Shown: positions 1,166 to 48,154, counted from the stretch's first letter. The stretch: 64,000 bases of DNA from an uncultured Candidatus Saccharibacteria bacterium (GCA_964478135.1 CAYZGQ010000001.1:3365-67364), one strand, 5' to 3'. A program made the numbers and translations. The notes: a model not told the origin generated them from the letters alone.

Positions 1166-1178
1166 GGTTGGATATGAC

Positions 1179-1901: not shown

Positions 1902-1954
1902 GATTTATTAATTTAGGTTTGATTTGGAGTTTGTTACTTTGCTAAGTTAAGGCT

Positions 1955-2248
1955 ATGACCGACCGAAGTGATAAGTCTCAAGTTACCCTGCGCGTCTTTG
2001 GTCAAGTTACTGGGGTGAGTTTTCGCTACTACATCCTCCAGCAGGCCGAAAAGATTGGTCAGATTACTGGCTTTGTTCGCAACGAGTTCAACGGTTCGGT
2101 TTTGATTGTCGCCCAAGGGCCAAAAGAAAAACTAGAACGTCTTATTAAGTCGGCCAGACAGGGTTCTCGGTTGGCTCGAGTGACAAAGGTGGCGATTGAT
2201 TGGTCTGAACCCATAGATCGATTCGATAACTTCACACTAGGGCTCTAG
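1955..2248 (+). CDS. acyP: acylphosphatase
   Basis: 97 aa. VFGQVTGVSFRYY and GFVRNEFNGSV match the acylphosphatase signatures V.G.VQGV.FR and G.V.N..dG.V. Confidence 0.85.
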   Translation: MTDRSDKSQVTLRVFGQVTGVSFRYYILQQAEKIGQITGFVRNEFNGSVLIVAQGPKEKLERLIKSARQGSRLARVTKVAIDWSEPIDRFDNFTLGL

Positions 2249-2287
2249 GTCTTTACCAATTCGCGGTCGTTCAGGTATGATCAAGCT

Positions 2288-12643: not shown

Positions 12644-13207
12644 ATGCCACGGAGGGGACTTAATTATCTTCTTTTTAGTTTAGTTGTTGTTTCGGCGATT
12701 TTGATGATCCTTTTTTGGCGCAGGAGTCCCAAACAGCCAGTTGACCGGCTGGCCCAGGAGCAGAAAGCGGCCGTTCTCTTTACCAGCGCCAAGGAGGCCC
12801 AAACATCGAGAGACTTTAAAACCGCGGTTGCCCGCTATCAGGAAGCGATCTCGTTCAACCCGAATGAGCCGGTTTATTTTGAGTCGCTCGGAGTCGCCCA
12901 GTATAACATTAAGGATTACCGGGGGGCGATTGCCAGTTTTGAGCAGGCGCTCAAATTGACGCCCGGGAGCGCCTTTTTATGGAACGGTTTGGCCAACGCC
13001 GCTCGCGACAGCGGCGATCGCCAGAGAGCCTTTGAGAGCTACCGCAAGGCGATCGAGCTTGACCCGGGTTTTTTGGTCGGCTACACCAACTTGGCTTACC
13101 TTTACCGAGACCAAGGCGCGGTTGACCGGGCTAAGGAGGTAATCGCCGAAGGTCTGGCCAAAAATCCCGACTCGGTTGAGTTGAAAGACATTTTAAAAAA
13201 CCTATGA
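12644..13207 (+). CDS. membrane-anchored TPR-repeat protein
   Basis: N-terminal TM helix, then 3-4 TPR units (A..Y..AI...P.......LG.A......Y..A...F..AL.L.P). The stop overlaps the next ATG (ATGA at 13204-13207). Confidence 0.8.
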   Translation: MPRRGLNYLLFSLVVVSAILMILFWRRSPKQPVDRLAQEQKAAVLFTSAKEAQTSRDFKTAVARYQEAISFNPNEPVYFESLGVAQYNIKDYRGAIASFEQALKLTPGSAFLWNGLANAARDSGDRQRAFESYRKAIELDPGFLVGYTNLAYLYRDQGAVDRAKEVIAEGLAKNPDSVELKDILKNL

Positions 13208-34597: not shown

Positions 34598-35275
34598 CTA
34601 GCTGGCTGGCGAGGGGCTTGGGCTAGCGGCTGATTGGCCAGTTTGACGGGCGAACACAATGTAACGTTTGACGAGCGTGCCCGGAGGCCAAGAGGTTTGG
34701 AGAGTTATGGTTTTGTCTTTCGGATCTTTGGGCGTTGGGTCTAGAACCGAGAAGTCGTCAGAGGCGACCACCTTCTTGCCAAAGACCTCGTATTGGTAGG
34801 CGACATTTTTGTAATAGACGATGAACCGATCGCCTTTGTCGAGTTTGTCGATACTTTTGAAGATTTCTTTAAGTTCTGGTTTACCCGGGAAGTTTTTAAA
34901 GTAGCTCGAGTGACCGAAGATGTACATATTTCCCAGTTGGTCCGGTTTCTGGCTACCTTTTAGATGTGCGACACCGAGCTGGGAGGTGATTTTTTGATAG
35001 ACCGGTTCGTTAGCCCCGTCAACATCCGCGATAATTGGAACCCGGATGCTGATTTTTTCGATCTCAAGACCAAATTCTTTGATCTCGACTGGTTCTGGCA
35101 GGGAACTTTGATTAAGCCCTGAAGGAGAGGCAGAGGGTTGAACGATTGATACGTTCAAGCCTGACTTTACCAAAGCAAGCGTTCCGGCAACAACCATAGC
35201 GCTTGCTAGTCCAATACCAAGAATAACTAGCTTTTTTTGAGTAGTCACTTGTGGCAAGACAGATTGTGGGTTCAC
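34598..35275 (-). CDS. sortase-family protein with Ser at the catalytic Cys position (no Cys in the protein)
   Basis: N-terminal TM anchor. The His loop NMYIFGHSSY, KGDRFIVYY..VAYQYEV, and ITLQTSWPPGT..KRYIVFARQ align with sortase TLxTC...R. The nucleophile codon is TCT (plus-strand aga 34691-34693). The start overlaps the stop of the upstream LPKTG gene by 4 nt. Confidence 0.8.
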   Translation of the reverse strand: MNPQSVLPQVTTQKKLVILGIGLASAMVVAGTLALVKSGLNVSIVQPSASPSGLNQSSLPEPVEIKEFGLEIEKISIRVPIIADVDGANEPVYQKITSQLGVAHLKGSQKPDQLGNMYIFGHSSYFKNFPGKPELKEIFKSIDKLDKGDRFIVYYKNVAYQYEVFGKKVVASDDFSVLDPTPKDPKDKTITLQTSWPPGTLVKRYIVFARQTGQSAASPSPSPAS

Positions 35276-38200
35276 GCGAGCCGGCGTCGAAGGGTTACCG
35301 CGACCGATCCAGCGGCAAGAGCGGCCAGTCCGATCAAGGCCAGTAGGTTGAGCGCGAGCGTGTTGGCCCCGGTTTTCGGCAGCTCAACAACCTGCGCCGA
35401 AACCTGATCGGTGTTAATTGACTCGTTGCCAGTTGTATCGAGGGAGCGCAGGGTGTAGTAGTATGTCCCTTTGGCGGTCAGGCTGTCATTATAACTCGTG
35501 TCTGCCTTGACGGTCGTCTTAATTTTATCGCCTAGCTTTCCAGATTCACTCGAGCGGTAAATGTTAATCTTGTCAAAGTCAGAGTCGGTTGGATTTTTCC
35601 AAGTTAAACTGATCTTACCAGTGCCGGCAGTCGCTTTGACTTCGCTTGGAGCGGCCGGCGGGGCGCTGTCAGCGTTGGCCGCCAGGCCAAAGACGGTTAA
35701 GTGGGAAACCAAACAACTAACTTCGTTTTTAGTGGTGTCAACGGTGCAGTTTTCCTTAGACAGTGAACCATCGGTCTCGTTGAATGAGACGATCTGGATA
35801 TCAGCTTCTTTGACCCCGGCCGGAATATCGGATTCTTTATAGGGGAAGGTGACGGTCAAGGGACTGTTGGGAGAAGTAATGTTAGAACCATTAGAGTCGA
35901 TCGCCGTGATATTATAAGCCTTTCCAAAGACAGAGGCACCTTCTTGGGCAGGCATTTCTGCTGTGGCGCCAACATTAAGCGTGACATTAGCGTCATCATT
36001 GTTTTTATCGAGTGCATCTGCGGGCACTTGGATGTTCATACCATCGCTTAAGGAGATTGCCGTAGCCGAACCCGAATTGCCAGTTCTTGAAGCGTCAGCT
36101 GGCAAAACGTTGCTTTGGGTAGTCAAACTAAAATCTTGGGTGAGATTGGTCGTTTGACCCTTGGTGTTAACCAGTTTTTCACCTGGTAGGATTATGACAT
36201 CTTTTTGGTTATCAGCATCTTTGGCGACATCAAGGTGCCAGACAGTATCTTTGGTGGCATTCATTGAGTATTTGCCATTGGAATCAGTCCGGACTTGGTT
36301 GACAGCGCCGTCGTCGGAATAGGCGCTGACAAGGGCATTGTTGACTGTTTGAGCGCTGGAATCATTAACTGTGCCTTCAAACTTAAAGTCGGCTTTGCGT
36401 AACTTAAAGTCAACCCCAGTTTTAGTTTCTTGATTGCCCACGCTAACGATTTGTTCAGCCGGTGGTAGCCAGCCATTTTTATTCAGCACTTCGGGCGCCA
36501 TAAAAACTCGGATGTTTTGGGTTTCACTGGAAGTGACATCGATTGAGTAGCTACCATTCGTATCAGTTTGGCCACTGAATTCGAAGAAGTCAGGCACAGG
36601 ACCTTTAGTTGCGTTGCGGTTATCGTCGTCTAGGCCGTTGTCCACTTTAACTTTCGCTCCCACGACCGCGTTACCATCGGGATCGGTGACTTTACCTTGG
36701 ATTTTGCTGTCAAGGGCTTTGAGTGTTACTTTAACCTCTGCCGTTTGGCCGGCCGTCAGGCTGACTTTGTCTTTGGGGGGTACCATGGCAAAGCCTGAAC
36801 CTGGTTCGATAAAGACACCGACACGGTAGGGGCTTTGCCCGGCAACAACACTAATGTTGTTAACAGAGGCGGCTCCGCCATGACCGGCGAAATCACCCAT
36901 GACATTGACACCTTTGTCAGAAATAGCAAAGGCGTGGGCAAAGACGCCGGAAATGGCACTGCCGTCAGATTTCACTAACTTAACGGCAATGTTAGCATCG
37001 GTAGGAACCAGCTTGATATCAATTGATTTGACCTCGTTTTTAGCAAGTTTGACCTTGCTAAATCCTTCGGGCATAAAGCCGTTCATTGGCATCATTGGGT
37101 TTAATGTGTACTCATTGTCACCGGGAACTTTGATATTAGCGCTCCCACGCTGGATTGGTTTACCCAGAAAGCCGATCGTATCACTATTAACTTCCATAAA
37201 GCCAAAGCTGTCAGAGACGACAGCTTTGGTGTCAGAACGGGTAATCCTGGCCTTGATGGTGGCATCGGCGTTAAGTGCCTCGAAGGTAGCTGTTCCACCG
37301 GCTTCAACGAACTGTGGCCCGCCTTTGATCACCTTGGAACTGCCAGCCTGTTGCTCTTGATCCTTTTGACCACCTTCAGGTCCAAAGTTCTCTGACATCA
37401 CCATCACGCCGTATTTGCCCGTGCCGACCACAGGGATCGTGCCGGTTGCTTCGGTCCCAGTCAGCTTAAGAATAGTAAAGCCGAATTCACCGCCTCCACC
37501 GACGCCCATCTTAAAGACATTGGCATTCATGTCGGCGGAGCCGTTTTTAACCACGACTTTGATTGCCTTTTCTTTTTTTACCAGAGTCAGGATACCGAGG
37601 TTTTTGGTTTCGCCGGCTTTAACCGCGATTGGCTCAATGACAGGCGCTGCGAACTGGGCGGCGTTGGGATTTTGGAAGTTCGGTGGCGAAAAGATGTCGA
37701 AATTATAGCTTTTTCCTCCGGCTACTTTCACGTTGAAGTTGACCGAGGAGGCACCCGGGGTAATCTGGAGGGGCGCGCCAAAGCCAAAGTCATTACCGGC
37801 CCGGATACCAAGACCGGTGCCTTGAGCTAGGGCGGATCCATCAGGCGTGGTAATTGTACCGGTAACCGCGGCGTCGACTTTTACGAAGTTATTAATGTTA
37901 ACGGTGACTGTTTCCACTGAATCGTCGTCTTTAAAGCTAGCCTGAATTGGCGGACCGCTCATCACGAAACTGCCGGCCCCATCGCTCGGGGCATGGATAT
38001 TCCATCTACCACCCGAGAGTTTGACGCTGTAGTTGCCGCTCCCGTCGGTTTTAGTTTGGGCAAAACCACCCGCTTCTTTAAAGAAGTTTAAGCTAGTAGT
38101 GATTACAGCTTCACCGGTCGCGGTGGTTGCTTTACCGGTTAAAGTTTTGGTCGCAGATTTAAATTTAATGGTTTTGCCAGTCAATTGGCTGCCGGTGTAG

Positions 38201-38577
38201 GTACCAAGATCTGTGAACGGGGGAGAGATTAATCCAGTGGTTGAGCCGTCAAACGGTGGGAAAAGATCGGCCACGAGCTTGTCGCCGCTTTGGGTGTTAT
38301 TAGCGAAGTCTTGGATAGTTGCCAGGCCGTTAGCGTCTGAATTGCTAAATAAGGAATATTTAAAATCAATCGGATGGACGTTAACTCCGGCGTTTTTGAC
38401 CGGCGCGCCATCGGCATCCTGGATGGTAATTACAATAATGGTTTTAGCCGTGGGTGGTGGTTGGGCGAGTGAGGCGCCAGAGTAGGCGAGGACTAGGCCC
38501 GCGATAGTGAAGACGCTTGTAAGGCCGCGCCAGTACAGGCGGAAAGCACCCGCCTGGGTCGTTCCTGATTGTAACAT
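35272..38577 (-). CDS. LPKTG-anchored giant surface protein (about 1101 aa), CarboxypepD_reg/Ig-like repeats plus C-terminal FN3
   Basis: I set the start at ATG 38577, preceded by AAAGGAGGG-N4; the ORF-track TTG 38598 lies upstream of that SD. Signal peptide ...LVLAYSGASLAQ. The C-terminus has an FN3 domain (ISLTWKNPTDSDFDKINIYRS) followed by LPKTG, a hydrophobic stretch and RRRLA. Confidence 0.85.
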   Translation of the reverse strand: MLQSGTTQAGAFRLYWRGLTSVFTIAGLVLAYSGASLAQPPPTAKTIIVITIQDADGAPVKNAGVNVHPIDFKYSLFSNSDANGLATIQDFANNTQSGDKLVADLFPPFDGSTTGLISPPFTDLGTYTGSQLTGKTIKFKSATKTLTGKATTATGEAVITTSLNFFKEAGGFAQTKTDGSGNYSVKLSGGRWNIHAPSDGAGSFVMSGPPIQASFKDDDSVETVTVNINNFVKVDAAVTGTITTPDGSALAQGTGLGIRAGNDFGFGAPLQITPGASSVNFNVKVAGGKSYNFDIFSPPNFQNPNAAQFAAPVIEPIAVKAGETKNLGILTLVKKEKAIKVVVKNGSADMNANVFKMGVGGGGEFGFTILKLTGTEATGTIPVVGTGKYGVMVMSENFGPEGGQKDQEQQAGSSKVIKGGPQFVEAGGTATFEALNADATIKARITRSDTKAVVSDSFGFMEVNSDTIGFLGKPIQRGSANIKVPGDNEYTLNPMMPMNGFMPEGFSKVKLAKNEVKSIDIKLVPTDANIAVKLVKSDGSAISGVFAHAFAISDKGVNVMGDFAGHGGAASVNNISVVAGQSPYRVGVFIEPGSGFAMVPPKDKVSLTAGQTAEVKVTLKALDSKIQGKVTDPDGNAVVGAKVKVDNGLDDDNRNATKGPVPDFFEFSGQTDTNGSYSIDVTSSETQNIRVFMAPEVLNKNGWLPPAEQIVSVGNQETKTGVDFKLRKADFKFEGTVNDSSAQTVNNALVSAYSDDGAVNQVRTDSNGKYSMNATKDTVWHLDVAKDADNQKDVIILPGEKLVNTKGQTTNLTQDFSLTTQSNVLPADASRTGNSGSATAISLSDGMNIQVPADALDKNNDDANVTLNVGATAEMPAQEGASVFGKAYNITAIDSNGSNITSPNSPLTVTFPYKESDIPAGVKEADIQIVSFNETDGSLSKENCTVDTTKNEVSCLVSHLTVFGLAANADSAPPAAPSEVKATAGTGKISLTWKNPTDSDFDKINIYRSSESGKLGDKIKTTVKADTSYNDSLTAKGTYYYTLRSLDTTGNESINTDQVSAQVVELPKTGANTLALNLLALIGLAALAAGSVAVTLRRRLA
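35368..35382 (-). other. LPKTG sortase-recognition motif codons
   Basis: The reverse complement of 35368-35382 reads ctg ccg aaa acc ggg (L P K T G). It is followed by 26 mostly hydrophobic residues and RRRLA. Confidence 0.85.
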
Positions 38578-38630
38578 TATCCCTCCTTTTGAGCTCAAGA
38601 TATATTTAATTAATTTGTAATTCTGTTTTT

Positions 38631-38659
38631 AAAATAACAAGATTTGGCAGATGTGTCAA
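38631..38659 (-). promoter_or_regulatory. putative sigma70-type promoter of the 1101-aa LPKTG gene
   Basis: The minus strand reads TTGACA (38659-38654), a 17-nt spacer, then TATTTT (38636-38631). It sits about 50 nt upstream of the SD and ATG. Confidence 0.45.
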
Positions 38660-38678
38660 GTTTCAGACTGTGGAAAGC

Positions 38679-39587
38679 TTAATTCTTTTTGGATTGTTGA
38701 GTTATTGATTCAAAGATCGGTTCAAGTTGACCATCTAAAATAGAGTTTATTCTGGAAAAACTTTTACCCGATCGATGGTCGGTCACCCTGTCCTGGGGGA
38801 AGTTGTAAGTTCTGATTTTTTCCGATCGATCACCCGAACCAACCATTTGTTTGCGAACTTTATCGGTCTTGGCGTGGATGCTGGCATCCTCGATTTTATT
38901 GAGCCGGGCGGCTAAAACCGCCAGTGCGCTTTGTCTGTTGGCCGTTTGAGAACGTTCGTCCTGTGAGGTCGCGACTAGGCCGGTTGGCCGGTGAACGATT
39001 CGGACCGCTGTCTCAACCTTATTAACATTTTGACCGCCGTGACCGCCGGCGCGAAAAAATGATATTTCAAGCTCGCTTGGTTTTAATTTAGCCGAGTCTT
39101 GTTTGACAACCGGCAAAACCGCGACCGTGGCGGCGGATGTGTGAATTCGGCCTCTCTTTTCCGTTACTGGTGTTCGCTGGACCCGGTGAACACCAGCCTC
39201 GGTTTTGAGGGAGTGATAGGGACTTGGGTTAGTTTCAAGTTGAGCCGATCCTTGGTTTTGTTTAACTTCTACTATGGCCGATTTAATCCCGCCTTGACTT
39301 GACGTTTGAATCTCAATCGGCCGCCAAATCCACGATCGGCGATGGCAAAAGTGCCGATACATTCTTAAAAGATCGGCCGCCCAAATTTCAGCCTCACCCC
39401 CGCCCACGCCGGCCCTGATTTCAAGAAAACAGTCATTGACTCGTTCTTCCTTTTGGCCCTTAAACTGACCGGTTTGAGCCTCGAGGCGTTTAATGTCCTC
39501 GCGAGCCATCTGCCCGATCGCAGGATCAGGATTTGAAGCGAGCGCCCGCGCCTGATTGAGCTGTTTGACAATTGTTTGATAGTCCAT
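38679..39587 (-). CDS. prfA: peptide chain release factor 1 (short, 302 aa)
   Basis: The RF1-specific tripeptide context [15 protein letters not shown] (PxT), the GGQ motif [18 protein letters not shown], and [21 protein letters not shown]. Confidence 0.9.
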
Positions 39588-39791
39588 AGTTTTGGGCTGG
39601 TTTGAGTTTGTTTCGCCGGCAATTGGTTTGAAACTGACCCAGTCTTGCCAACCGAGCTAAGATAATGTTACACTCATCAACTGGATTGGTAAAATGTAAT
39701 ACTAAAATATAGACTCTCATACTAGACGAGAGAGATTGATTTTTTCTCTCTTTATCTTTAATTGTAATTTACTTTTGTCTTGCCGATCAAA

Positions 39792-40028
39792 ATGAAAAAA
39801 AAGATCCATCCAACCTATCACCAGGCGAGCGTGAGGTGCGCCTGCGGCGCTAACTACACCGTTGGCTCAACCAAGACTAACATGAGTATTGAGGTTTGTA
39901 GCGCCTGTCATCCACTTTTTACAGGCGATGCTAAGTTTTTGGACACAGCCGGGAGGATTGATCGCTTTAAGGCGAGACTTAAACAGTTGTCCGAGGCCGA
40001 ACCTAAGACTGCAAAAAAGTTAAAGTAA
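39792..40028 (+). CDS. rpmE: ribosomal protein L31
   Basis: MKKKIHPTYH start; I moved the start to ATG 39792 from the ORF-track TTG 39780. Cys pairs C.C....C..CHPLFTG. Confidence 0.9.
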   Translation: MKKKIHPTYHQASVRCACGANYTVGSTKTNMSIEVCSACHPLFTGDAKFLDTAGRIDRFKARLKQLSEAEPKTAKKLK

Positions 40029-40068
40029 CTAAAGCCTTTTTGCTAATTTCAACCCAATAACTGGATAT

Positions 40069-40959
40069 ATGGCTACCAAGATTATTAAAGTAAAAGCGGT
40101 CAAGTCAGCCCAAACAACTACCGGTCGCCAGAAGACCGAAAGCCATCTTATGGGTAAGACGAGCAAGGCCAAGGAGCCTTCAAAGATAGCCCTGCCAAGT
40201 GTTGAGAAACTATTTGAACTGGGCGCCCATTTTGGTCATCAGCGCTACCGATCTCATCCTGATTTTCAGGAATACGTCTGGCAAGTGCGCGATGGAGTTA
40301 TGATTTTGGATTTAAGCCAAACGCTTGACCGGCTCAAACTGGCGCTTGATTTTTTGGACAAGCAGAGTCGACTTGGCAAAAAAATACTAATTGTTGGGAC
40401 CAAGAGAATCAGTCGTGATTTGGTCGAGCGCTTGGGTAAAGAAACAAACACAGCTTGGGTCTCAAACCGGTGGTTGTCTGGTACTTTGACTAACTTTGCC
40501 ACTCTGATTGGACAAATCAAAAAACTCAATCGTTTAAGCGAGTTGATCGGCTCGAAAGAGTTTGAGCAGATGACTAAAAAGGAACGTTTAATCTGGGAGC
40601 GAAAACTGGCCAGGCTCCACGACAACTTTGACGGTTTGAGCAGTCTTGAGGCAAGACCGGATATATTAGTGGTGATTGACGGACACGCTCACCGGATTAG
40701 CACAGATGAAGCCAAACGTTTGGGGATCACCACGGTCGTGTTCGCCGACAGCGACACTGATCCTAGCCTGTGCGATTACTTGGTCCCGATTAACGATGAT
40801 TCACGATCAACGATCGAGCTGGTGATTAATTTAATCGGTCAAGCGATCGGCGGTGCCAGAACATCTGATCAGACAACAAAGCCGGACAGTCTAGTAAAAA
40901 GTGACAGAGCCAGAGCGCGCGGTTTAAGTAAAATCAATAATGTCCAAGACGTTAGTTGA
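40069..40959 (+). CDS. rpsB: ribosomal protein S2 with N- and C-terminal extensions
   Basis: The core LFELGAHFGHQRYRSHP...ILIVGTKR...RWLSGTLTN matches S2. An N-terminal extension of about 45 aa is present; an alternative start at ATG 40150 is possible. Confidence 0.9.
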   Translation: MATKIIKVKAVKSAQTTTGRQKTESHLMGKTSKAKEPSKIALPSVEKLFELGAHFGHQRYRSHPDFQEYVWQVRDGVMILDLSQTLDRLKLALDFLDKQSRLGKKILIVGTKRISRDLVERLGKETNTAWVSNRWLSGTLTNFATLIGQIKKLNRLSELIGSKEFEQMTKKERLIWERKLARLHDNFDGLSSLEARPDILVVIDGHAHRISTDEAKRLGITTVVFADSDTDPSLCDYLVPINDDSRSTIELVINLIGQAIGGARTSDQTTKPDSLVKSDRARARGLSKINNVQDVS

Positions 40960-41404
40960 GACGATCAAAAAGCTCCGGGATGAAACAGGGGCCGGACTAA
41001 TGGATGTTAAAAAGGCGCTCACTCAAGCTGGTTCGGATCTCAACAAGGCGAGAGTGATTCTGCGTCAGACAAGCGCTGTCAAAGCGGTTCAAAAGAGTGA
41101 ACGCTCGACCCAAGCCGGCTTGATCGAATCATACGTCCACGCCGGCAAAATCGGGGTGCTGGTTGAGCTGGGTTGTCAGACCGATTTTGTGGCGCGCACG
41201 AGTGAGTTCAAGGCGCTAGCCCATGAACTAGCCCTGCAAGTGGCCTCAATGGCCCCTAAAAACGTGACCGAGCTGTTTAGCCAAAACTACATCAAAGACG
41301 AGTCAACCACGATCAAGCAGATTGTGAATAACGCGATCGCGAAACTGGGCGAAAATATTCAAATTAAGCGTTTTGTAAGGTTTGAACTTGGTCAGGGCGA
41401 CTGA
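40940..41404 (+). CDS. tsf: elongation factor Ts (short form, 154 aa)
   Basis: The UBA-like N-terminus IKKLRDETGAGLMDVKKAL, YVH.GKIGVLVEL.CQTDFVART. 20-nt overlap with rpsB. Confidence 0.85.
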   Translation: MSKTLVETIKKLRDETGAGLMDVKKALTQAGSDLNKARVILRQTSAVKAVQKSERSTQAGLIESYVHAGKIGVLVELGCQTDFVARTSEFKALAHELALQVASMAPKNVTELFSQNYIKDESTTIKQIVNNAIAKLGENIQIKRFVRFELGQGD

Positions 41405-41444
41405 CCATTCTTCAAACTGTAATGTCTCAACCGATTAGTTGCTC

Positions 41445-41473
41445 TTGACAAGGCTGGTTTATGTCTTGACAAT
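41445..41473 (+). promoter_or_regulatory. putative promoter of the second LPKTG gene
   Basis: TTGACA 41445-41450, a 17-nt spacer, then GACAAT 41468-41473. A second overlapping TTGACA sits at 41466-41471. Confidence 0.4.
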
Positions 41474-41503
41474 GTAAGTAAGACACAAACCGAAGGAGGG
41501 GAA

Positions 41504-44500
41504 ATTAATTCAAGACAGAATGAGACTTGGGGGTTTAGTCTAGGAGAGTCTCTTGCGAAGCCCTTTATATGGCTAGTGCTGGGTGTTTTAGCCCTGCTCG
41601 GTCTGGTTTTAGTCAGTCCTTCGGCCGTCCAGGCCGGTGCAATCACCGGTTTGTCGGTTACAGTCAGTGACACGAGCGTCCAAGGGACGGCTGACTGGAC
41701 AATTGCCCTGACTCCAGAACAGTCAGTCCCAGCCAAGTCAAATGGCGGTCGGATTCACATGTGTGTCTATGGACCAGGCTCGATGAGTTTTCGGGATGGT
41801 TCTGTCGCGCTCGATTCGTCGGCTAGCACGAGCGGTTTGTCAATCTATGAACGGTTGGGAAATTGTATCACCCTTCAGTCAAACAGCGAGATCGCAGGAG
41901 GAACGGTTATCACTGCCAAACTGACAGGGGTTAGAAACCCAGACAAAGCCGGACGGTATGTTGGTCACATCTACAGCTCGACCTACGGCACCGCCCGAGA
42001 CGGCACCTCTCGCTGGGGCGGGCTCTACAATAGTTCTTTTACCATCGGCGATTTGACCAAGAACACTATTTCAGGTACGGTCACAGATGCCAATGGCGCA
42101 CCGGTCCGGTTTGCCTCCGTCTCTGTTTGGGGTAGCGGCGGCGGCGCTTGGGGCTACAGCTACACCGATCAAAATGGCCAGTACGCGATCGGCAGTCTAA
42201 CCACTGGCTCCTACAACTTTAGCGTCTACGGTCCCTACAACGAAGACGGTATCTTTTATTTTGCGCCTGATGTTTCGAGTATTTCAATTTCCGATACTTC
42301 GGCCACGACCAAAAACGCCAGCTTTTTAGCGACTCCCAAAACATTGCAAATTAAGGTTGAGGACGGCTCTGGTACAGCCATAACCGATGCCTATGTCTCG
42401 ATCTGGTCCAGAAACGGGAATGGTTGGGCTCAAACCAAAAACAACACCAACGGAGTCTACAAGATTAATGTTCCGAAAAACCGGACTTTTGGGTTTAGCG
42501 TTTATCCCCAAAATTGGCCTTCAACCTGGCAGTCATGCGGCAGTTATAACGAAGAAGTTACGACCGCCAACACCGATACGGCCGAGACTGTCAGTAAGAC
42601 GTTTAAGGTTTCCTCGCTCAACGCCACGGTCAAAGGTAAGATTGAGCGGTCTGACGATAGCACGCCCAAGCGCTGGTCAGTGAGCGTGAGTTTCCAGTCA
42701 AGCGGAGGTTGCTGGGCTTCAGCCGACTTTCCCGACGACACTGGTAATTTCAGCGCTAAAGTTGTCAGTGGCGAGACTATCACCGCGACTGGTTGGGTTT
42801 CGAGTGATCTCAACGAATCATTCCCAACGGTCAGTAACTTTTCGGTCCAAGCCAACCAAGAGCACAACCTGGGCGTAATCAAACTTAAAAAGCGTGATAA
42901 AAAGCTCGCTGTGACGGTTGTGGACAAAAATGGCGATCCGGTTAACAAGGCCAACGTCTACGCTTGGAAAACTGGCGGTTCGTATGAATATGCCAACGGC
43001 ACAACTGGCTCCGATGGCAATGCGGAACTCTTTTTGAGTCCAGGCAGCTGGAATGTTTCGGCCGGGCCAGAGTACCGCTGGAATGGCTCAAACAACGAAT
43101 ATGACTATGTCTCCAACTGGAAGTCTCAATTGATCAGCTTTTCCGAGTCAGACACGACTAAAACGATCAAGTTTATCTTCCAAAAGGTTACCTCAACGAT
43201 TAATGTCACCGTGACCGATGAGGCTGGGAGCGTCCTTAACCTATCGGGTAGTTTGTCGGCCAACGATGGTTCGCAAGAATGGTCAAATATCTGGTCCCAG
43301 CTCAATAGTGGCAAAGGCAAGCTTAGGGTTCCCCGAGGGACCTGGAGTGTTAACGCCAGTATTTGGGATGAGACCTATAGCTCACCAAATCCGGTTGACA
43401 TCACGATCGGTGATAATGAGACCAAAGAGATCAAGCCCAAGGCCTTGATCAATGATTCGACCATTTCCGGCAAAATCTACACAGAAGATGAAGATGGTAA
43501 CCGGACCCTGCTTAAAAACACTTGGCTTAGCATCTATGCTAACAAAAAAAATTCCTACTCTTCTTGGCGGTCAGCCTCGGTCAACCAAGAAGAAGGAACC
43601 TATTCGATCAAAGTTTCCTCGGGTGACTGGAGGCTCGGTTACTGGTTTTATAACAACAATTATATGTCAGGATACGGGAACGAAGTTGATGTATCGGTTA
43701 AATCAGGTGAAACTAAGACCCAAGATATTATTCTGCGCAAAGCTAACTACACCATCTCGGTCAAGGCGCTCGATCCAGACGGCAAGGCGCTGATGGGGGC
43801 TTGGATCACGGCTGACACGCGCAATCCTAAAGAGCGGACCGAAGCTGGTACTTGGTACTCAACCGGTACCTCAACCAATAATCAGGGAGAGGGGACGATT
43901 CAAGTGTCAGCCAACACTTACTGGATTAGTGGTTCGATGTGGTCAGGTTATATCAGTCCAGAGCGCCAAGAGGTTAAGGTCAATAAAGACAATCCAACTG
44001 CCAGTGTCACTCTCCAGTTCGGTCGGTCTGATGCGACTATATCTGGCACAGTCAAGCTCGATGACAAAGGGACTAAGTCGTTTGTTAATGCGGTCAGCGA
44101 GAAAGGCCGCTATGCCGAGACTAATTCAAGTAACGAAGGCCATTACATCCTCAACGTCTCGAAAGACGACACTTGGGTCGTCAAGGCAGTTAAAAAGGAT
44201 GGCGCAACTTTGTATCGATCAGACAAGAATCGAGTTGATCTCACTGGTAAGACCACGGGCATAGTCAATCTCGATTTGGTAAAAGAAACAATCAAGTTGC
44301 CGGAGGGGACGACCAGCACCTTTAATGCCAGCCAGTCAACTACCGTTAAGATTAAAAATGGCAATGTTGACGAAGTGATCATCACTGTTCCGACTGGCAC
44401 CCTGTCGAGCGATAATGAACAGATAACTGTAACGGCCGATGTGACCGAAGAGGTCACCGACACTTCAACTAGCGAGCCTGTTTTCGACTACGGTTATGAC

Positions 44501-45193
44501 ATCAACGCCAACGGTAGCCAATCCGGCACAATCAGCCAGTTGAAGGATAACGTGACCGTGACCGTAAACTATTCGGCCAACGAGCAGGCGATCCAAGATG
44601 AGGGAACAGAAGAGGACCTAGTGGTAGCCCGTTTCAACAACGAGAAAGGTGAATGGGAGCAACTCCAAGGTTGCGCTACAAACAAGGATGACAACACTAT
44701 TACCTGTCAAAATAATCACTTCACCAAGTTTGCGGTTGTCGCTTCAACCGACATCACCCCACCTTCTGCTCCAGGTAGCCAGAAGGCGATTGCTTCGAAC
44801 GCTAAGATTTCTTTAAGCTGGAGCAAGCCAAGCCAGGCCGACTTTGCCGGGGTTAACATCTATCGGTCAACCGAGAGTGGCAAGCTGGGTGATAAGATTT
44901 ACGGCAAAAATACCTCCACCAGTCACGACGATACGGTTCTGATCAACGACACGGTCTATTACTATACCCTCAAGTCAGTTGACAAAGCCGGTAACGAGTC
45001 AACCGCATCCGATCAGCTCAAAGCCAAGCCTTCAGCAACCTCGCCGGAGTCATCGGACGGTTCAACCACTGCCACGCTCTCAATTCTGCCCAAGACTGGT
45101 CAACCAGCCTCGCCTTTGAATTGGTTGTTGGCGATTCTGACAGTGATCAGCCTGGCCGGGGTCAGGGCATCGAGGATTGTCCGGATTAAGTGA
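41504..45193 (+). CDS. LPKTG-anchored giant surface protein (1229 aa if ATT 41504 is the start; 1205 aa from GTG 41576)
   Basis: GGAGG 41495-41499, then N4, then in-frame ATT 41504. This start adds an n-region (MNSRQNETWGFSLGESLAKPFIW) in front of the hydrophobic core LVLGVLALLGLVLVSPSAVQA. The body has CarboxypepD_reg-like repeats (ISGTVTDANGAPVRFASVSVW...TDQNGQYAIGSLTTGSYNF). The C-terminus has an FN3 domain, then LPKTG 45086-45100, a hydrophobic stretch and RIVRIK. Confidence 0.8.
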   Translation: MNSRQNETWGFSLGESLAKPFIWLVLGVLALLGLVLVSPSAVQAGAITGLSVTVSDTSVQGTADWTIALTPEQSVPAKSNGGRIHMCVYGPGSMSFRDGSVALDSSASTSGLSIYERLGNCITLQSNSEIAGGTVITAKLTGVRNPDKAGRYVGHIYSSTYGTARDGTSRWGGLYNSSFTIGDLTKNTISGTVTDANGAPVRFASVSVWGSGGGAWGYSYTDQNGQYAIGSLTTGSYNFSVYGPYNEDGIFYFAPDVSSISISDTSATTKNASFLATPKTLQIKVEDGSGTAITDAYVSIWSRNGNGWAQTKNNTNGVYKINVPKNRTFGFSVYPQNWPSTWQSCGSYNEEVTTANTDTAETVSKTFKVSSLNATVKGKIERSDDSTPKRWSVSVSFQSSGGCWASADFPDDTGNFSAKVVSGETITATGWVSSDLNESFPTVSNFSVQANQEHNLGVIKLKKRDKKLAVTVVDKNGDPVNKANVYAWKTGGSYEYANGTTGSDGNAELFLSPGSWNVSAGPEYRWNGSNNEYDYVSNWKSQLISFSESDTTKTIKFIFQKVTSTINVTVTDEAGSVLNLSGSLSANDGSQEWSNIWSQLNSGKGKLRVPRGTWSVNASIWDETYSSPNPVDITIGDNETKEIKPKALINDSTISGKIYTEDEDGNRTLLKNTWLSIYANKKNSYSSWRSASVNQEEGTYSIKVSSGDWRLGYWFYNNNYMSGYGNEVDVSVKSGETKTQDIILRKANYTISVKALDPDGKALMGAWITADTRNPKERTEAGTWYSTGTSTNNQGEGTIQVSANTYWISGSMWSGYISPERQEVKVNKDNPTASVTLQFGRSDATISGTVKLDDKGTKSFVNAVSEKGRYAETNSSNEGHYILNVSKDDTWVVKAVKKDGATLYRSDKNRVDLTGKTTGIVNLDLVKETIKLPEGTTSTFNASQSTTVKIKNGNVDEVIITVPTGTLSSDNEQITVTADVTEEVTDTSTSEPVFDYGYDINANGSQSGTISQLKDNVTVTVNYSANEQAIQDEGTEEDLVVARFNNEKGEWEQLQGCATNKDDNTITCQNNHFTKFAVVASTDITPPSAPGSQKAIASNAKISLSWSKPSQADFAGVNIYRSTESGKLGDKIYGKNTSTSHDDTVLINDTVYYYTLKSVDKAGNESTASDQLKAKPSATSPESSDGSTTATLSILPKTGQPASPLNWLLAILTVISLAGVRASRIVRIK
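45086..45100 (+). other. LPKTG sortase-recognition motif codons
   Basis: ctg ccc aag act ggt, followed by QPASPLNWLLAILTVISLAGV and a basic tail. Confidence 0.85.
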
Positions 45194-45876
45194 AATATGC
45201 TTTAACGGCACATCTTTTATCCCGGGCGGGCAAAATAGATGAGCCTGATTTGATGATACTCATAACGGAAGCGGGATAATGGTGACCGTAAGCGATCGAT
45301 CAATCGCCGACCACTTACAGGCTGGCGTAAAGACATTGATTTAACCGACAAATCTCAAAAAAGCGGTTGGTTTTTTTTGTTTTGCTCGCGCTTTGTGAAT
45401 CTTAGACCAGGCAGGATCGAGGGTGAGGTATGGGCCCGAATAATTTAGGAGTCTGCTGGAAGGATCAGTCAATGTCTGATGAGCCCAGGCTGATCAAGGC
45501 CGGTTTTACCACCTGCTATTGACAATGGGCCTTAAAAAGTGTCTGGCTCCAGGTACCTTGGACTGGGTAGGGCCCGGCAGGCCCGACATTTGTCAAGACA
45601 AACAATCGCCACGATCAGCCTCGGATCTTGCGGATCTAGAATGCCTCGCGTCTAGCAGCCTGATATAAAACACCCCGAGAGACTTGACTAGTCAAGACCG
45701 TCAGATGACACTGGAGACCGTCTGGCCAAAGGCCGACCGGATGAGCGTCCAATAAGCGTGATATCGCAATAACTAAAAAATAGGTCAATTCAGTCTGGTG
45801 GTACCAGGCCGCGGATCAGGCTCTGACTGGTTCAAGATAAAAAATAAACGGGATGGGGCAATAATCAGCCATTGGG

Positions 45877-45897
45877 GTCGCCCAAAAGGCGATTTTT
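45877..45897 (+). terminator. putative small intrinsic terminator / attenuator hairpin
   Basis: gTCGCC-caaaa-GGCGA followed by TTTTT, ending 6 nt before ATG 45904. Confidence 0.35.
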
Positions 45898-45903
45898 GAT
45901 CAA

Positions 45904-46446
45904 ATGATGGACCCAGTGGTAAGGGTGCTTGAAAAGAGTTATTCAGCCAGGCACAATTGTGTTATGATGACTGTCCTGGCGGCCGGGGTGTTTGATGTGA
46001 TACATCCTGGTCACATTTACTTTCTCGAGCAATCCAAGAAGCTGGGTGACCGCTTAGTGGTCGTTGTGACGTCTGACGAGACGGCCGAGACCCAAAAGAG
46101 ACACCCTTTTTTTAATGTTAAGCACCGGTTGTCTATCGTCCAATCACTTCGATCGGTTGATCTGGCGGTTATTGGGCAGGCAGGCGAGACCCTTAAAAGT
46201 GTGATTGATATTAAGCCAGACGTGATCGCGATCGGCCACGATCAATTCATTCAACCAATCGGTAGCAAAAGTTTAACAACTGGCATCGAGCCGGGCCGGA
46301 CAAGCGTTCAGCCCCAAGACCACGGGCTAGCCCAACTGGGCCGCGATTTGGCAAAATTGGGTTGGCGAGGTAAAATTGTCCGTATAGACAAAATGCCTGG
46401 GATTAGAGTTTCATCGAGTCGAATTAAGAAGTTACTTAGACGCTGA
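45904..46446 (+). CDS. cytidylyltransferase-family nucleotidyltransferase, RibL-like (possible FMN adenylyltransferase)
   Basis: AAGVFDVIHPGHIYFLEQSKKLGDRLVVVVTSDE (the (T/H)xGH nucleotidyltransferase motif), ...PDVIAIGHDQ..., and C-terminal RVSSSRIKKLL. This layout resembles archaeal-type FAD synthetase RibL. A more likely start is ATG 45964 (MMTVLAAG...). Confidence 0.55.
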   Translation: MMDPVVRVLEKSYSARHNCVMMTVLAAGVFDVIHPGHIYFLEQSKKLGDRLVVVVTSDETAETQKRHPFFNVKHRLSIVQSLRSVDLAVIGQAGETLKSVIDIKPDVIAIGHDQFIQPIGSKSLTTGIEPGRTSVQPQDHGLAQLGRDLAKLGWRGKIVRIDKMPGIRVSSSRIKKLLRR

Positions 46447-46487
46447 CGTTAACTCGTTTTTTCTATTAGCTAGTTTCCACCAAAACA

Positions 46488-47045
46488 ATGCTTGATCAAA
46501 TCATCAAACAAACTCGAGACAAAATGGAACAGGTCCTAGCCCAGATGAGCCAGGATTTTAGCCAGTTGCGCACCGGCAAGGCCTCGGCCGTCTTAGTCGA
46601 GTCGATTATTGTTGACCAGTACGGGGCCAAACTGCCGATTAAGCAACTGGCCACAATTACCGTTCCAGATGTCAATTTAATCGTGATCACGCCTTGGGAT
46701 AAGGGGTCTTTGGTTCAGATCGAGGCGGCGATTGATCAGTCAAACCTTGGCCTCAACTCGGTTAATGACGGATCTTCTATCCGTTTGAACTTGCCGCCGA
46801 TGTCAGCCGAGCGCCGAGCTCAAATAGCTAGGCTGGTCCTGACAAGAGCCGAAGAGGCCCGAGTGGCCCTTAGAGAACTCCGTCAATCAGCCTGGTCCCA
46901 GGTTCAAAAAAATGAAAAGTTGGGTCAGTTAACCCAAGACGATCGTTACCGAGGCGAAGAGATGCTTAATAAGTTGATTGCCGAGTTTAACGACGAGGTT
47001 AAAAAGAGTGCTCAATCAAAGGAGCAAGAAATTAGTTCGGTCTAA
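46488..47045 (+). CDS. frr: ribosome recycling factor
   Basis: 185 aa. F..LRTGKAS..L...I.V..YG...P..Q.A.I.VPD...I.I.PWDK. Confidence 0.9.
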   Translation: MLDQIIKQTRDKMEQVLAQMSQDFSQLRTGKASAVLVESIIVDQYGAKLPIKQLATITVPDVNLIVITPWDKGSLVQIEAAIDQSNLGLNSVNDGSSIRLNLPPMSAERRAQIARLVLTRAEEARVALRELRQSAWSQVQKNEKLGQLTQDDRYRGEEMLNKLIAEFNDEVKKSAQSKEQEISSV

Positions 47046-47095
47046 CAAACAGTTTTGTTTGACTAGAATTACAATTTATTATTTTTAATCAAACT

Positions 47096-48154
47096 ATGGT
47101 TCTAATCACAGTTGTCGCCCTGATTTTAATCCTTGGAGTGATTATTTTCGTCCACGAGTTAGGGCATTTTTTGACCGCCCGCTTATTCGGTTTTAAAGTT
47201 GATGAGTTCGCCTTTGGCTTTGGCCCAAGGATATTTAAAAGACAATCTAAGCAAACTCTTTTCAGCGTTAACGCTTTTCCGCTGGGAGGCTATGTTAAGC
47301 TCCATGGCGAGGGTCAGGCTCTTGATGATTCTGATTCATTTGAGACAAAACCGATCTTACATAGAGCGGCGGTTGTCTTAGCGGGCGTGGCGATGAACTT
47401 GATTTTAGCTTGGTTGGTATTGAGTTTTTGGTACTTATTGGTGATTGTTCAGCCGCCCGACAACTCGGTGATTGTCGGTCGGGTTATTGCCGGTGGTTCA
47501 GCCCAGGCGGCTGGAATTCAAGCCGGTGATTTGCTCGTCCAGGGTGACTCGGTCAGATTTGAGCACGCCCGGGCGGTGGCCGAGTTTACTCGATCTCATA
47601 CCGGACAAACTGTCGAACTGGTGGTGCGGCGATTTGGCAAGGATGTTGTCAAGAGAGTCAAGCTAGGTGATGATCCAACCGCTCCACTTGGACTAGCCCC
47701 GATTGACTTAGTTGATCTTCCGGAAGGCTTAGAGGTTGGTCGTTCATCCCTGTATGCCCTTCAAGAAGTAACTTTAGTTATCAAAGCCAACAGTCAGTTT
47801 ATTGGTCAGCTTGTGACCGGTATTTTTAGCCGGGCTCCGGCCCCTGTAGGCGAGGTGGCTGGTCCGGTCGGGATTTATGGTTACTTGTCTCAAATGGTTT
47901 CGATTGGCCCGATTTTTGTGCTCCGTTTTAGCGCAATCTTGTCGCTAGTGGTGGCTTTTTTCAACATTTTGCCCATTCCAGCCCTTGACGGCGGGCGGCT
48001 ATTTTTTATCTTGATTGAGGGTCTAGCCGGCCGGAAATTAGTCCGCCAGCAGATCGAGCAGGCGGTCCACGCAGTTGGTTTTGTCTTTCTGGTCGGTCTG
48101 ATCCTTTTAGTAACGTATCAAGATATCGCAAAGCTGATTGGCAGTCGGCTCTAA
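47096..48154 (+). CDS. rseP: RIP site-2 metalloprotease (M50, RseP-like) with PDZ domain
   Basis: HELGHFLTARLFGFKVDEFAFGFGP, a PDZ domain (GSAQAAGIQAGDLLV), and NILPIPALDGGRL. Confidence 0.85.
   Translation: MVLITVVALILILGVIIFVHELGHFLTARLFGFKVDEFAFGFGPRIFKRQSKQTLFSVNAFPLGGYVKLHGEGQALDDSDSFETKPILHRAAVVLAGVAMNLILAWLVLSFWYLLVIVQPPDNSVIVGRVIAGGSAQAAGIQAGDLLVQGDSVRFEHARAVAEFTRSHTGQTVELVVRRFGKDVVKRVKLGDDPTAPLGLAPIDLVDLPEGLEVGRSSLYALQEVTLVIKANSQFIGQLVTGIFSRAPAPVGEVAGPVGIYGYLSQMVSIGPIFVLRFSAILSLVVAFFNILPIPALDGGRLFFILIEGLAGRKLVRQQIEQAVHAVGFVFLVGLILLVTYQDIAKLIGSRL

Follow-up and report, generated by a model that had tools for sequence, protein, structure and literature searches.

We analyzed a stretch of 64,000 nucleotides (the window). 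As originally predicted, two divergent LPKTG genes, which we call adhesin1 and adhesin2, bracket prfA, rpmE, rpsB, and tsf: both open reading frames are present, and Pfam and NCBIfam confirm the identities of the four genes in the core translation block. The features of the locus are:

34598..35275, minus strand: sortase, with serine at the position of the catalytic cysteine (Pfam Sortase, TIGR01076)
35272..38577, minus strand: adhesin1, 1101 amino acids, with a signal peptide, CarboxypepD_reg-type repeats, a putative MAIN domain, FN3, and LPKTG (open reading frame, Pfam, and homology)
35272..35382, minus strand: sorting signal of adhesin1 (LPKTG at 35368-35382, hydrophobic segment, RRRLA, stop)
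35386..35661, minus strand: FN3-like stalk domain of adhesin1 (about amino acids 973-1064), between MAIN and LPKTG
35395..38430, minus strand: recombinant-like segment of adhesin1, from the mature ectodomain through FN3 (sliding DNA identity against relative L002)
35674..36141, minus strand: putative MAIN (GAIN_B-like) domain of adhesin1 (amino acids 813-968), with predicted cleavage at H959-L960/T961 (nt 35703-35695)
38631..38659, minus strand: promoter-like site between prfA and adhesin1, upstream of the latter (TTGACA-17-TATTTT; consensus match only)
38679-39587, minus strand: prfA, a short RF1 of 302 amino acids, in the same direction as adhesin1 and the sortase (Pfam, NCBIfam)
39780-40028, plus strand: rpmE (Pfam, NCBIfam)
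40069-40959, plus strand: rpsB (Pfam, NCBIfam)
40940-41404, plus strand: tsf, only 154 amino acids (Pfam, NCBIfam)
41445..41473, plus strand: promoter-like site upstream of adhesin2 (TTGACA-17-GACAAT; consensus match only)
41504/41576-45193, plus strand: adhesin2, 1229 or 1205 amino acids depending on the start codon (open reading frame, Pfam, and homology)
44261..44743, plus strand: putative MAIN domain of adhesin2, with predicted cleavage at H-F/T (nt 44717-44725)
44753..45025, plus strand: FN3 domain of adhesin2 (7-strand model, Foldseek)
45086..45193, plus strand: sorting signal of adhesin2 (LPKTG at 45086-45100, hydrophobic segment, basic tail, stop)
45904..48154, plus strand: context genes (a cytidylyltransferase-like gene, frr, and an M50 (RseP-like) protease)

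Adhesin1 starts with ATG, with AAGGAGG upstream, and its signal peptide is amino acids 1-38. Adhesin2 has two alternative starts: GTG at 41576, which is chosen in public gene calls and gives 1205 amino acids, and ATT at 41504, which gives 1229 amino acids, has a strong Shine-Dalgarno sequence (GAAGGAGG) 4-5 nt upstream, and supplies a proper charged n-region to the signal peptide. The promoter candidate of the TTGACA-17-nt type that had been proposed for each gene is present. (The two sites match 10/12 consensus positions each and are the best two matches in the region, in a scan that scores consensus match only and that found 8 sites where 3.5 were expected.)

The architecture that the two proteins were said to share (signal peptide, beta-sandwich repeats, C-terminal cassette, and LPKTG) is indeed present in both, after an extra N-terminal region of ~140 amino acids in adhesin2 that is absent from adhesin1. 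The CarboxypepD_reg family from Pfam matches both proteins (4e-19 and 2e-18), and this repeat array is presumably the binding or spacer part. Our label "adhesin" is inferred from the repeat architecture; searches identified no ligand-binding domain. The FN3-like domain of adhesin1 has weak Pfam matches to DUF4998 and DUF4959, and fn3 is found in homologs; for adhesin2, the top Foldseek matches of this domain are FN3 domains from neogenin, titin, and cytokine receptors (E about 1e-7). LPKTG followed by a hydrophobic segment and a basic tail occurs in both adhesins and in no other open reading frame in the window, so the expectation that both proteins are sortase substrates agrees with the predicted sorting signals at both C-termini. 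Both belong to a large family of surface proteins that are secreted and anchored to the cell envelope.

Full-length BLASTP of adhesin1 against adhesin2 gives 26% identity across 1150 columns (E = 5e-63). A comparison of the bodies only, with the MAIN domain, FN3, and the tail cut off, still gives a colinear alignment (23% identity, 813 amino acids, E = 5e-24), so the similarity extends beyond the FN3/LPKTG tail and the suggestion that the genes are paralogs holds. The C-terminal cassettes are 42-54% identical. However, the identity of the paralogs at third codon positions is close to random (0.15-0.47), and both have nearer relatives in other genomes than each other: adhesin2 scores 651 bits against P0157 and over 500 bits against P0032 and P0148, versus 221 bits against adhesin1, and adhesin1 is 42% identical to P0007. 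Given these comparisons, the paralogy is ancient, and the pair did not arise by a recent duplication at this site.

The order prfA-adhesin1-sortase is kept in relatives with an adhesin that is 82% or 47% identical to adhesin1; the relative with a 61% identical adhesin is on a short contig, with only adhesin1-sortase in view. prfA is also upstream of adhesin1 in L001 and L002. We sought a syntenic ortholog of adhesin2 in the relatives and found none, whereas adhesin1 has one. The earlier view of accessory adhesins around a fixed core thus stands for adhesin2 only. By gene order, adhesin2 is a lineage-specific insertion in the rpsB-tsf-frr cluster: the context genes downstream of it extend a conserved rpsB-tsf-...-frr-rseP-aaRS cluster, which adhesin2 breaks.

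The original prediction also suggested a duplication-inversion around the translation block. In this scenario, a recent duplication, followed by inversion, would have set two accessory adhesin copies around the fixed block. This would account for two mutually inverted genes with full-length homology and for the missing syntenic ortholog of adhesin2; also, frr lies directly after adhesin1-sortase in L001, so rearrangements do happen at this locus. But we consider this scenario very improbable given the low identity of the paralogs in both amino acids and third codon positions, the several closer homologs of each in other genomes, and the retention of prfA-adhesin1-sortase even where the adhesin of a relative is only 47% identical.

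Segment 35395..38430 has 75-91% DNA identity to L002 (about 84% in the body of adhesin1), versus 45-64% (about 55%) in its surroundings, and this contrast points to recent recombination. By the Nei-Gojobori method, pS against L002 is 0.50 in the adhesin and 0.77 or more in the flanks. These comparisons point to a recent exchange, between lineages, of the ectodomain-coding part of the conserved prfA-adhesin1-sortase unit.

Several side observations concern the wider family and its setting. One distant homolog that carries a name is from Candidatus Kerfeldbacteria (29% identity). The bit-score ranking already points away from adhesin1 and adhesin2 as sister sequences. There are relatives from groundwater, and EF-Ts and RF1 are both reduced in the window.

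We propose that the segments reading C..C..SHLTVFGLA in adhesin1 and C..C..NHFTKFAVV in adhesin2, whose nature the original prediction missed, are the catalytic end of a GAIN_B-like autoproteolytic (MAIN) domain, as judged from alignments and structural models. The MAIN domain, which in microbes corresponds to GAIN_B, the autoproteolytic domain of adhesion GPCRs in animals, was described by Brogan & Rudner in May 2026 (bioRxiv 10.64898/2026.05.12.724683). In YfkN and five other MAIN domains, cleavage occurs between F and S of an HFS motif and the fragments stay associated; a typical MAIN protein has a signal peptide, an ectodomain, the MAIN domain, and, last, an anchor of the sortase, SLH, or peptidoglycan type (bioRxiv 10.64898/2026.05.12.724683). 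They surveyed RefSeq Select, and the text of the paper does not name any CPR lineage (bioRxiv 10.64898/2026.05.12.724683). In both adhesins, a signal peptide is followed by a large ectodomain, MAIN, and a surface anchor, and the anchoring tails that follow MAIN in their homologs are LPXTG, SLH, or peptidoglycan-binding-like.

A profile built from the two MAIN sequences retrieved 2072 representative proteins with E ≤ 1e-3, of which 353 reach E ≤ 1e-10. Across 143 aligned copies of the homologous domain, histidine is at the predicted site in 143/143; the next residue is F (91) or L (52), and the second residue after His is T (119) or S (24), so that T/S is also found in 143/143, followed by x-[FYW]-[AGS]. 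Almost no other positions are invariant. The AF2 model of the MAIN domain (pLDDT 92.5) places the H-x-T motif in a turn between strands 140-145 and 150-156, and the model of MAIN plus FN3 from adhesin2 (pLDDT 89.9) has HFT between strands 146-151 and 156-161; in both models, the motif precedes the last beta-strand. The best Foldseek match of the MAIN model is the GAIN domain of BAI3 (E = 1.8e-4, TM 0.55-0.60), and its beta-sandwich can be superimposed on subdomain B of GAIN. The modelled domain is all-beta, flanked by beta-sandwich repeats before and FN3 and LPKTG after; a helical GAIN_A subdomain and a downstream 7TM/11TM receptor are absent from it. When the profile of 42 family sequences was compared to the PDB, it matched the GPS of ADGRF1 at E = 3.7e-4, with HfT aligned on HLT. 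Pfam's GPS (PF01825) scores 21.5 bits in adhesin2 and 19.2 bits in adhesin1, both just under the gathering cutoff of 22.5; homolog P0009 clears it (27.8 bits). GPS is the top Pfam family for 13 of the 42 members, and ZU5 has weak matches in only 2 of the 42.

The fold does not always imply cleavage: some GAIN domains (BAI3, CELSR) and all ankyrin-type ZU5 domains are not cleaved. On the model of the ZU5 domains of ankyrin or UNC5, or of uncleaved GAIN domains, the domain could be a non-cleaving structural beta-sandwich, and the proteins would stay tethered permanently, as components of the wall or of something like an S-layer. We think that this is unlikely, because the His and the Thr/Ser are invariant when almost nothing else is, a constraint that is missing from non-catalytic ZU5 domains. 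Furthermore, nearly all of the bacterial MAIN domains that were tested experimentally are cleaved (bioRxiv 10.64898/2026.05.12.724683).

The original prediction missed a feature of the gene after adhesin1: the sortase that it encodes lacks the catalytic cysteine. The GTG start of this gene overlaps the stop codon of adhesin1 (GTGA), and the protein matches Pfam's sortase family (PF04203; 76.7 bits, E = 1.7e-21, cutoff 26.6) and TIGR01076 (42.5, cutoff 39.35). No sortase class (A-F or GN) in NCBIfam is above its cutoff; the best are class E (51 bits) and class D (47 bits), versus cutoffs of 160-165. His122 and Arg204 of the sortase triad are retained, but the catalytic motif is TLQTSWPP, with a TCT serine codon, and there is no cysteine in the whole protein. 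In a profile alignment with solved sortases, this serine falls on the Cys of TLITC. Sortases are cysteine transpeptidases by definition, and to our knowledge all known sortases have the catalytic cysteine at this position. Judging by its translation, this sortase lacks it, which is unexpected.

That definition would fit a catalytically dead pseudo-enzyme, as would the Cys-to-Ser mutants of SrtA from S. aureus, which are reportedly inactive or nearly so. The wall anchoring would then be due to a cysteine-containing sortase elsewhere (our view of this genome spans 64 kb), or else the adhesins would be held in the membrane via their C-terminal helix. We give this some weight but lean against it. 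Among 71 related metagenomic sortases, 32 have the serine, which is encoded by TCN as well as AGY codons; within those 32, both the His and the Arg are always retained (32/32 each), much as in the related sortases overall (His 71/71, Arg in 69/69 aligned sequences). The Cys/Ser change has at least two origins, each with a Met-to-Gln change at position -2. And at least 19 of the genes for serine sortases begin 3-220 nt past a gene for an LPRTG or LPTTG substrate, on the same strand. The pairing of adhesin1 with the sortase is kept in L001-L003 and L007.

Taken as a whole, the best explanation, which we consider probable, is that the two adhesins are ancient-paralog, wall-anchored surface proteins with MAIN domains that are predicted to cleave themselves. 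Drawing on Brogan & Rudner 2026 and on GAIN biochemistry, we expect that after export, MAIN would cleave itself between L960 and T961 in adhesin1, or between F and T in adhesin2 (H1048/F1049/T1050 in the 1205-amino-acid numbering), with the invariant His activating the Thr for an N-O acyl shift. The last beta-strand would be kept hydrogen-bonded within the sandwich, and therefore the ectodomain would still be attached: ~920-1040 amino acids held non-covalently on a wall-anchored stub of ~110 amino acids (the last strand, FN3, and LPKT-). A pulling force on a bound ligand could then free the ectodomain and leave the cell wall undamaged. Anchoring would be expected from the sortase that is translationally coupled to adhesin1, with a triad of His-Ser-Arg instead of His-Cys-Arg; since this enzyme, the window's sole sortase, is without the canonical nucleophile, it is not certain that the adhesins become covalently linked to the wall. 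Large adhesins would fit an epibiotic life, and the host is probably a groundwater member of the CPR/Patescibacteria, as suggested by the Kerfeldbacteria homolog, the groundwater relatives, and the reduced EF-Ts and RF1.

Parts of this locus resemble several known systems. The MXAN_2561 family of MYXO-CTERM proteins (NCBIfam NF045522) matches adhesin2 at amino acids 1021-1155 (E = 3.3e-8), across the GPS-like end of MAIN and FN3, and in both cases this cassette lies ahead of a C-terminal sorting signal, although the signal is MYXO-CTERM in that family and LPXTG in the window. We rejected membership in this family (33 bits versus a cutoff of 150 bits). The sortase is like those of classes D and E (MEROPS C60) in its HMM match and fold, its His and Arg, its N-terminal membrane anchor, and the linkage of its gene to an LPXTG substrate gene, but it has TLQTS[WY]P instead of TLxTC, with Ser at the nucleophile position. 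The ZU5/FIIND domains (PIDD, NLRP1, CARD8, UNC5, ankyrin) are cytoplasmic and eukaryotic, unlike the MAIN domains in the window. Compared to the GAIN domains of adhesion GPCRs and polycystin-1 (Arac et al. 2012, PMC3321182), the likeness at the sequence level is limited to the GPS motif, about 40 residues, and the adhesins have neither GAIN_A nor a downstream 7TM receptor, so signalling by a tethered agonist is not evident.

The published MAIN proteins (YfkN of B. subtilis and the IgA-Fc receptor of S. agalactiae, among others) differ from the adhesins in having HFS at the site instead of HLT or HFT. Unlike them, the adhesins have an ectodomain built from CarboxypepD_reg repeats that lacks any enzyme domain, FN3 between MAIN and LPXTG, a probable CPR host, and a partner sortase with Ser instead of Cys. 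Our comparison to the YfkN group is of fold, motif, and architecture, from genes and models. On that basis, both groups share a GAIN_B-like sandwich with an H-x-(S/T) turn before the last strand, and both are large proteins in which a signal peptide leads into a large ectodomain, MAIN, and a wall anchor (LPXTG).

The surface proteins discussed here, adhesin1 and adhesin2, have the following genes and neighbors:

35272-38577, minus strand: adhesin1, 1101 aa, starting at ATG 38577 with AAGGAGG 5 nt upstream of the ATG
41576-45193, plus strand: adhesin2 from GTG 41576, the first canonical start and the one used in public gene calls, 1205 aa
41504-45193, plus strand: adhesin2 from the in-frame ATT 41504, 1229 aa, with GAAGGAGG just upstream (start region 41491-41506)
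34598-35275, minus strand: sortase, clearly so by HMM, whose start overlaps the stop codon of adhesin1 (GTGA)
between the adhesins: prfA (minus strand) and rpmE, rpsB and tsf (plus strand)

The ORF listing and translation agree with the gene coordinates of the original prediction, and its length of 1229 aa for adhesin2 is reproduced from ATT 41504. We believe that this rare codon, behind the strong GAAGGAGG, is probably the true start: it supplies the charged n-region of the signal peptide, which the GTG start truncates. As had been claimed, both proteins carry LPKTG tails. In a scan of the 64-kb window for C-terminal sorting signals, these are the only two ORFs whose C terminus combines LPKTG with a hydrophobic segment and a basic tail. 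From the gene order and strands, the locus consists of two divergent, co-directional strings, one on the minus strand (prfA, adhesin1, sortase) and one on the plus strand (rpmE, rpsB, tsf, adhesin2). The two TTGACA-17 sites proposed as promoters are present and are the best local matches, but they are consensus matches only.

Two of the translation proteins are reduced forms, yet they score as tsf and prfA. At only 154 aa, EF-Ts (40940-41404) covers no more than the first half of the tsf model (293 positions), and RF1 (38679-39587) has 302 aa and is without about 45 N-terminal residues. After adhesin2 comes a spacer of ~710 nt (45194-45903), which is unusually long for this compact genome. It has no ORF of at least 60 aa, no Rfam, tRNA or protein similarity, and no convincing terminator; we considered a decayed gene or RNA there, and the Rfam, tRNA and protein-similarity checks were all empty. 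Two giant ORFs elsewhere in the window were rejected as related adhesins, as neither has an LPXTG signal or the MAIN domain (a microbial GAIN_B-like autoproteolytic domain) described below:

13204-19461, plus strand: 2085 aa, with a Gly-rich region and then an array of FN3 and purple-acid-phosphatase-N-like domains
27446-32896, plus strand: 1816 aa, beginning with duplicated HTH_17 motifs, then a transmembrane segment and a long stretch that matches no Pfam family

The adhesins are paralogs, as had been predicted. Full-length BLASTP aligns them over 1150 columns at 26% identity (E = 5e-63). A colinear alignment of the bodies persists when the C-terminal 280 aa are removed (E = 5e-24), so the homology extends beyond the FN3/LPKTG tail. 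The repeats are 10-40% identical, and the FN3 cassette reaches 42-54%. At third codon positions, identity is essentially random (0.15-0.47), which argues for an old duplication without recent gene conversion; for the C-terminal cassettes, recent conversion was considered and rejected because their third-codon identity is 0.31-0.47. Adhesin2 also has an extra N-terminal domain of ~140 aa (41576-42000; residues ~1-140 of the 1205-aa form) that is absent from adhesin1. It matches no known family and may serve as a tip or in ligand binding.

The original prediction also explained the arrangement by duplication and inversion around the translation block. This is not supported, because each paralog has closer homologs in other genomes than the other paralog. 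Orthologs of adhesin1 in three related metagenomic loci are 82% (L002), 61% (L003) and 47% (L001) identical. Upstream sequence is available for L002 and L001, and in both of them prfA directly precedes adhesin1; in all three loci the sortase is the gene that follows it. In the 47%-identity relative (L001:3978-5803), a 23S-IVP gene lies between adhesin and sortase, and frr comes directly after the sortase. The window has frr downstream of adhesin2 instead, so gene order at this locus has changed from one lineage to another. Adhesin2 itself interrupts an otherwise classical rpsB-tsf-(pyrH)-frr-rseP-aaRS string. The sole sequence more than 37% identical to it is adhesin2 recovered again from this genome in a second sample (L005), and its nearest relative (P0157) has an unrelated gene context. 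The expectation of a variable locus therefore holds for adhesin2, whose context is not shared by relatives, but not for adhesin1, as the order prfA-adhesin1-sortase is kept. Scans of GTDB representative contigs with RpsB or with an alignment of the adhesin1 orthologs returned no match, nor did a scan of metagenome contigs with the adhesin alignment. The bacterium is probably a member of CPR/Patescibacteria, as judged from a homolog named as Candidatus Kerfeldbacteria, the relatives from groundwater, and the short EF-Ts (154 aa) and RF1 (302 aa). Overall, the observation was confirmed, but its evolutionary interpretation was only partly right.

Adhesin1 appears to be a mosaic. From window position ~38430 to ~35395 (L002 ~670-3700), DNA identity to L002 is 75-91%, or about 84% overall. 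This segment runs from just past the signal peptide to just ahead of LPKTG. Identity is 45-64% in the parts of adhesin1 outside it (signal peptide and sorting tail) and in the neighboring prfA, sortase and htrA genes, which by themselves are only about 50-60% identical. By the Nei-Gojobori method, the body of adhesin1 has pS = 0.50 and dN = 0.11 relative to L002, versus pS of at least 0.77 (saturated) and dN of 0.40-0.55 for the flanking genes. Selection on the protein cannot hold synonymous sites, so the likeliest explanation is that the ectodomain-coding segment was recently recombined or transferred between lineages. Ectodomains that are exchanged among lineages while their housekeeping flanks diverge are a signature of selection at the host interface.

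The truly unexpected element of the locus is the sortase that is coupled to adhesin1. It reads TLQTSWPP, with the serine aligned on the catalytic cysteine of solved sortases, and the whole protein contains no cysteine. The sortases of L002 and L003 also have this serine (codon TCC), while L001 has TIMTCWPP. No class-specific NCBIfam sortase model reaches its cutoff with the window sortase, and a literature search on serine sortases and CPR sortases found nothing relevant. A metagenome scan gave 80 related sortase loci, many from groundwater. Of 71 non-redundant sortase domains, 37 have Cys and 32 have Ser at the nucleophile position (the Ser codons are TCN in 26 and AGY in 5), and the catalytic His (71/71) and Arg (69/69 aligned) are always kept. 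The serine enzymes may have a pseudo-enzyme role. However, the window protein looks like a functional, undescribed variant: a glutamine at -2 covaries with the serine (TLQTS[WY]P; L002, L003 and L020-L064), and in at least 19 cases a serine-sortase gene begins 3-220 nt after a gene whose product ends in an LPRTG or LPTTG sorting signal. We searched the 64-kb window for any further sortase or MAIN protein and found none.

In a quick neighbor-joining tree (motif columns masked, no bootstrap), there is a large TLQTSYP clade, and the small clade of the window sortase lies apart from it, nested among TxMTCWP enzymes. Given these two separate clades, the paired change from Met-Cys to Gln-Ser arose at least twice. 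Our tentative proposal, which we rate as somewhat short of probable, is that these are undescribed serine-nucleophile sortases with a His-Ser-Arg triad and always Gln for Met at -2 (TLQTS[WY]P), that they evolved at least twice from cysteine sortases in groundwater bacteria that are probably CPR, and that they are working anchorers of LPxTG proteins, including self-cleaving MAIN adhesins. The locus reveals a sortase clade that has serine for the defining catalytic cysteine and is genetically coupled to LPxTG substrates. If the serine is the nucleophile, then "sortase = cysteine transpeptidase" is no longer universal. If the enzymes are active, then the textbook definition of the family changes, and they would provide oxidation-resistant enzymes for sortase-mediated ligation.

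The adhesins themselves add to the sortase-anchored MAIN-domain surface proteins, a very recently described kind for which neither their lineage nor their sub-architecture has yet been reported. A word-index homology search with the C-terminal cassette gave two matches, both limited to FN3, so finding this family needs an exhaustive HMM search. Using a profile from two sequences of the 160-aa region before FN3, exhaustive search identified 2072 homologous representative proteins (E ≤ 1e-3), 353 of them with E ≤ 1e-10, and the sub-architecture (CarboxypepD_reg repeats, MAIN, FN3, anchor) proves to be widespread. Across 143 aligned copies, a histidine is the sole fully invariant residue. It is followed by F (91/143) or L (52/143), then T (119/143) or S (24/143), and then x-[FYW]-[AGS]; a tryptophan is kept in 132/143. 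No dedicated Pfam family covers the domain; for 13 of 42 members, the best-matching family is GPS, the motif at the predicted cleavage site. In adhesin2, GPS is near threshold at "GEWEQLQGC...C.NNHFTKFAVV" (21.5 bits versus a cutoff of 22.5). The 42-sequence profile matches the GPS motif of ADGRF1 (E = 3.7e-4), with its HfT aligned on HLT.

Structural models agree. The AF2 model of the adhesin1 domain (pLDDT 92.5, pTM 0.84) places HLT in the turn that joins the penultimate strand to the final one, and a Foldseek search with it agrees with a GAIN-type fold. The model of MAIN+FN3 from adhesin2 (pLDDT 89.9) has HFT in the same turn, then a PPxAP linker and a 7-strand FN3. We identify the conserved motif before FN3 as the predicted GAIN/MAIN autoproteolysis site.

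This type of domain was described in May 2026 as MAIN (Brogan & Rudner, 10.64898/2026.05.12.724683). In that work, the MAIN domains of YfkN and of several other bacterial proteins cleave at HF|S and the fragments remain together; a signal peptide and an ectodomain usually come before MAIN, and an anchor after it; and the proposed role is release of the ectodomain triggered by force (10.64898/2026.05.12.724683). That survey covered RefSeq Select and CPR/Patescibacteria are absent from its text (10.64898/2026.05.12.724683). Our results place the module in a probable CPR/Patescibacteria genome.

For both proteins, our analysis shows the fold, locates the invariant catalytic dyad in the correct turn and identifies the anchor signals and the order of the domains; from the repeat architecture, we infer that they are adhesins. 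They would cleave themselves at L960|T961 (adhesin1) and F|T (adhesin2). A stub of ~110 aa, made up of the last strand, FN3 and LPKT-wall, would then hold the ectodomain of ~920-1040 aa by non-covalent contacts, and load on the ectodomain would release it. A force-releasable adhesin would be a concrete and testable mechanism of attachment and detachment for ultrasmall, host-attached epibionts. A pair of cysteines flanks the hairpin just before H-x-T (C944...C955 in adhesin1, 35704-35750; 44669-44716 in adhesin2), and a disulfide between them is plausible. Most bacterial homologs are without this pair, but both paralogs share it with the eukaryotic GPS motif.
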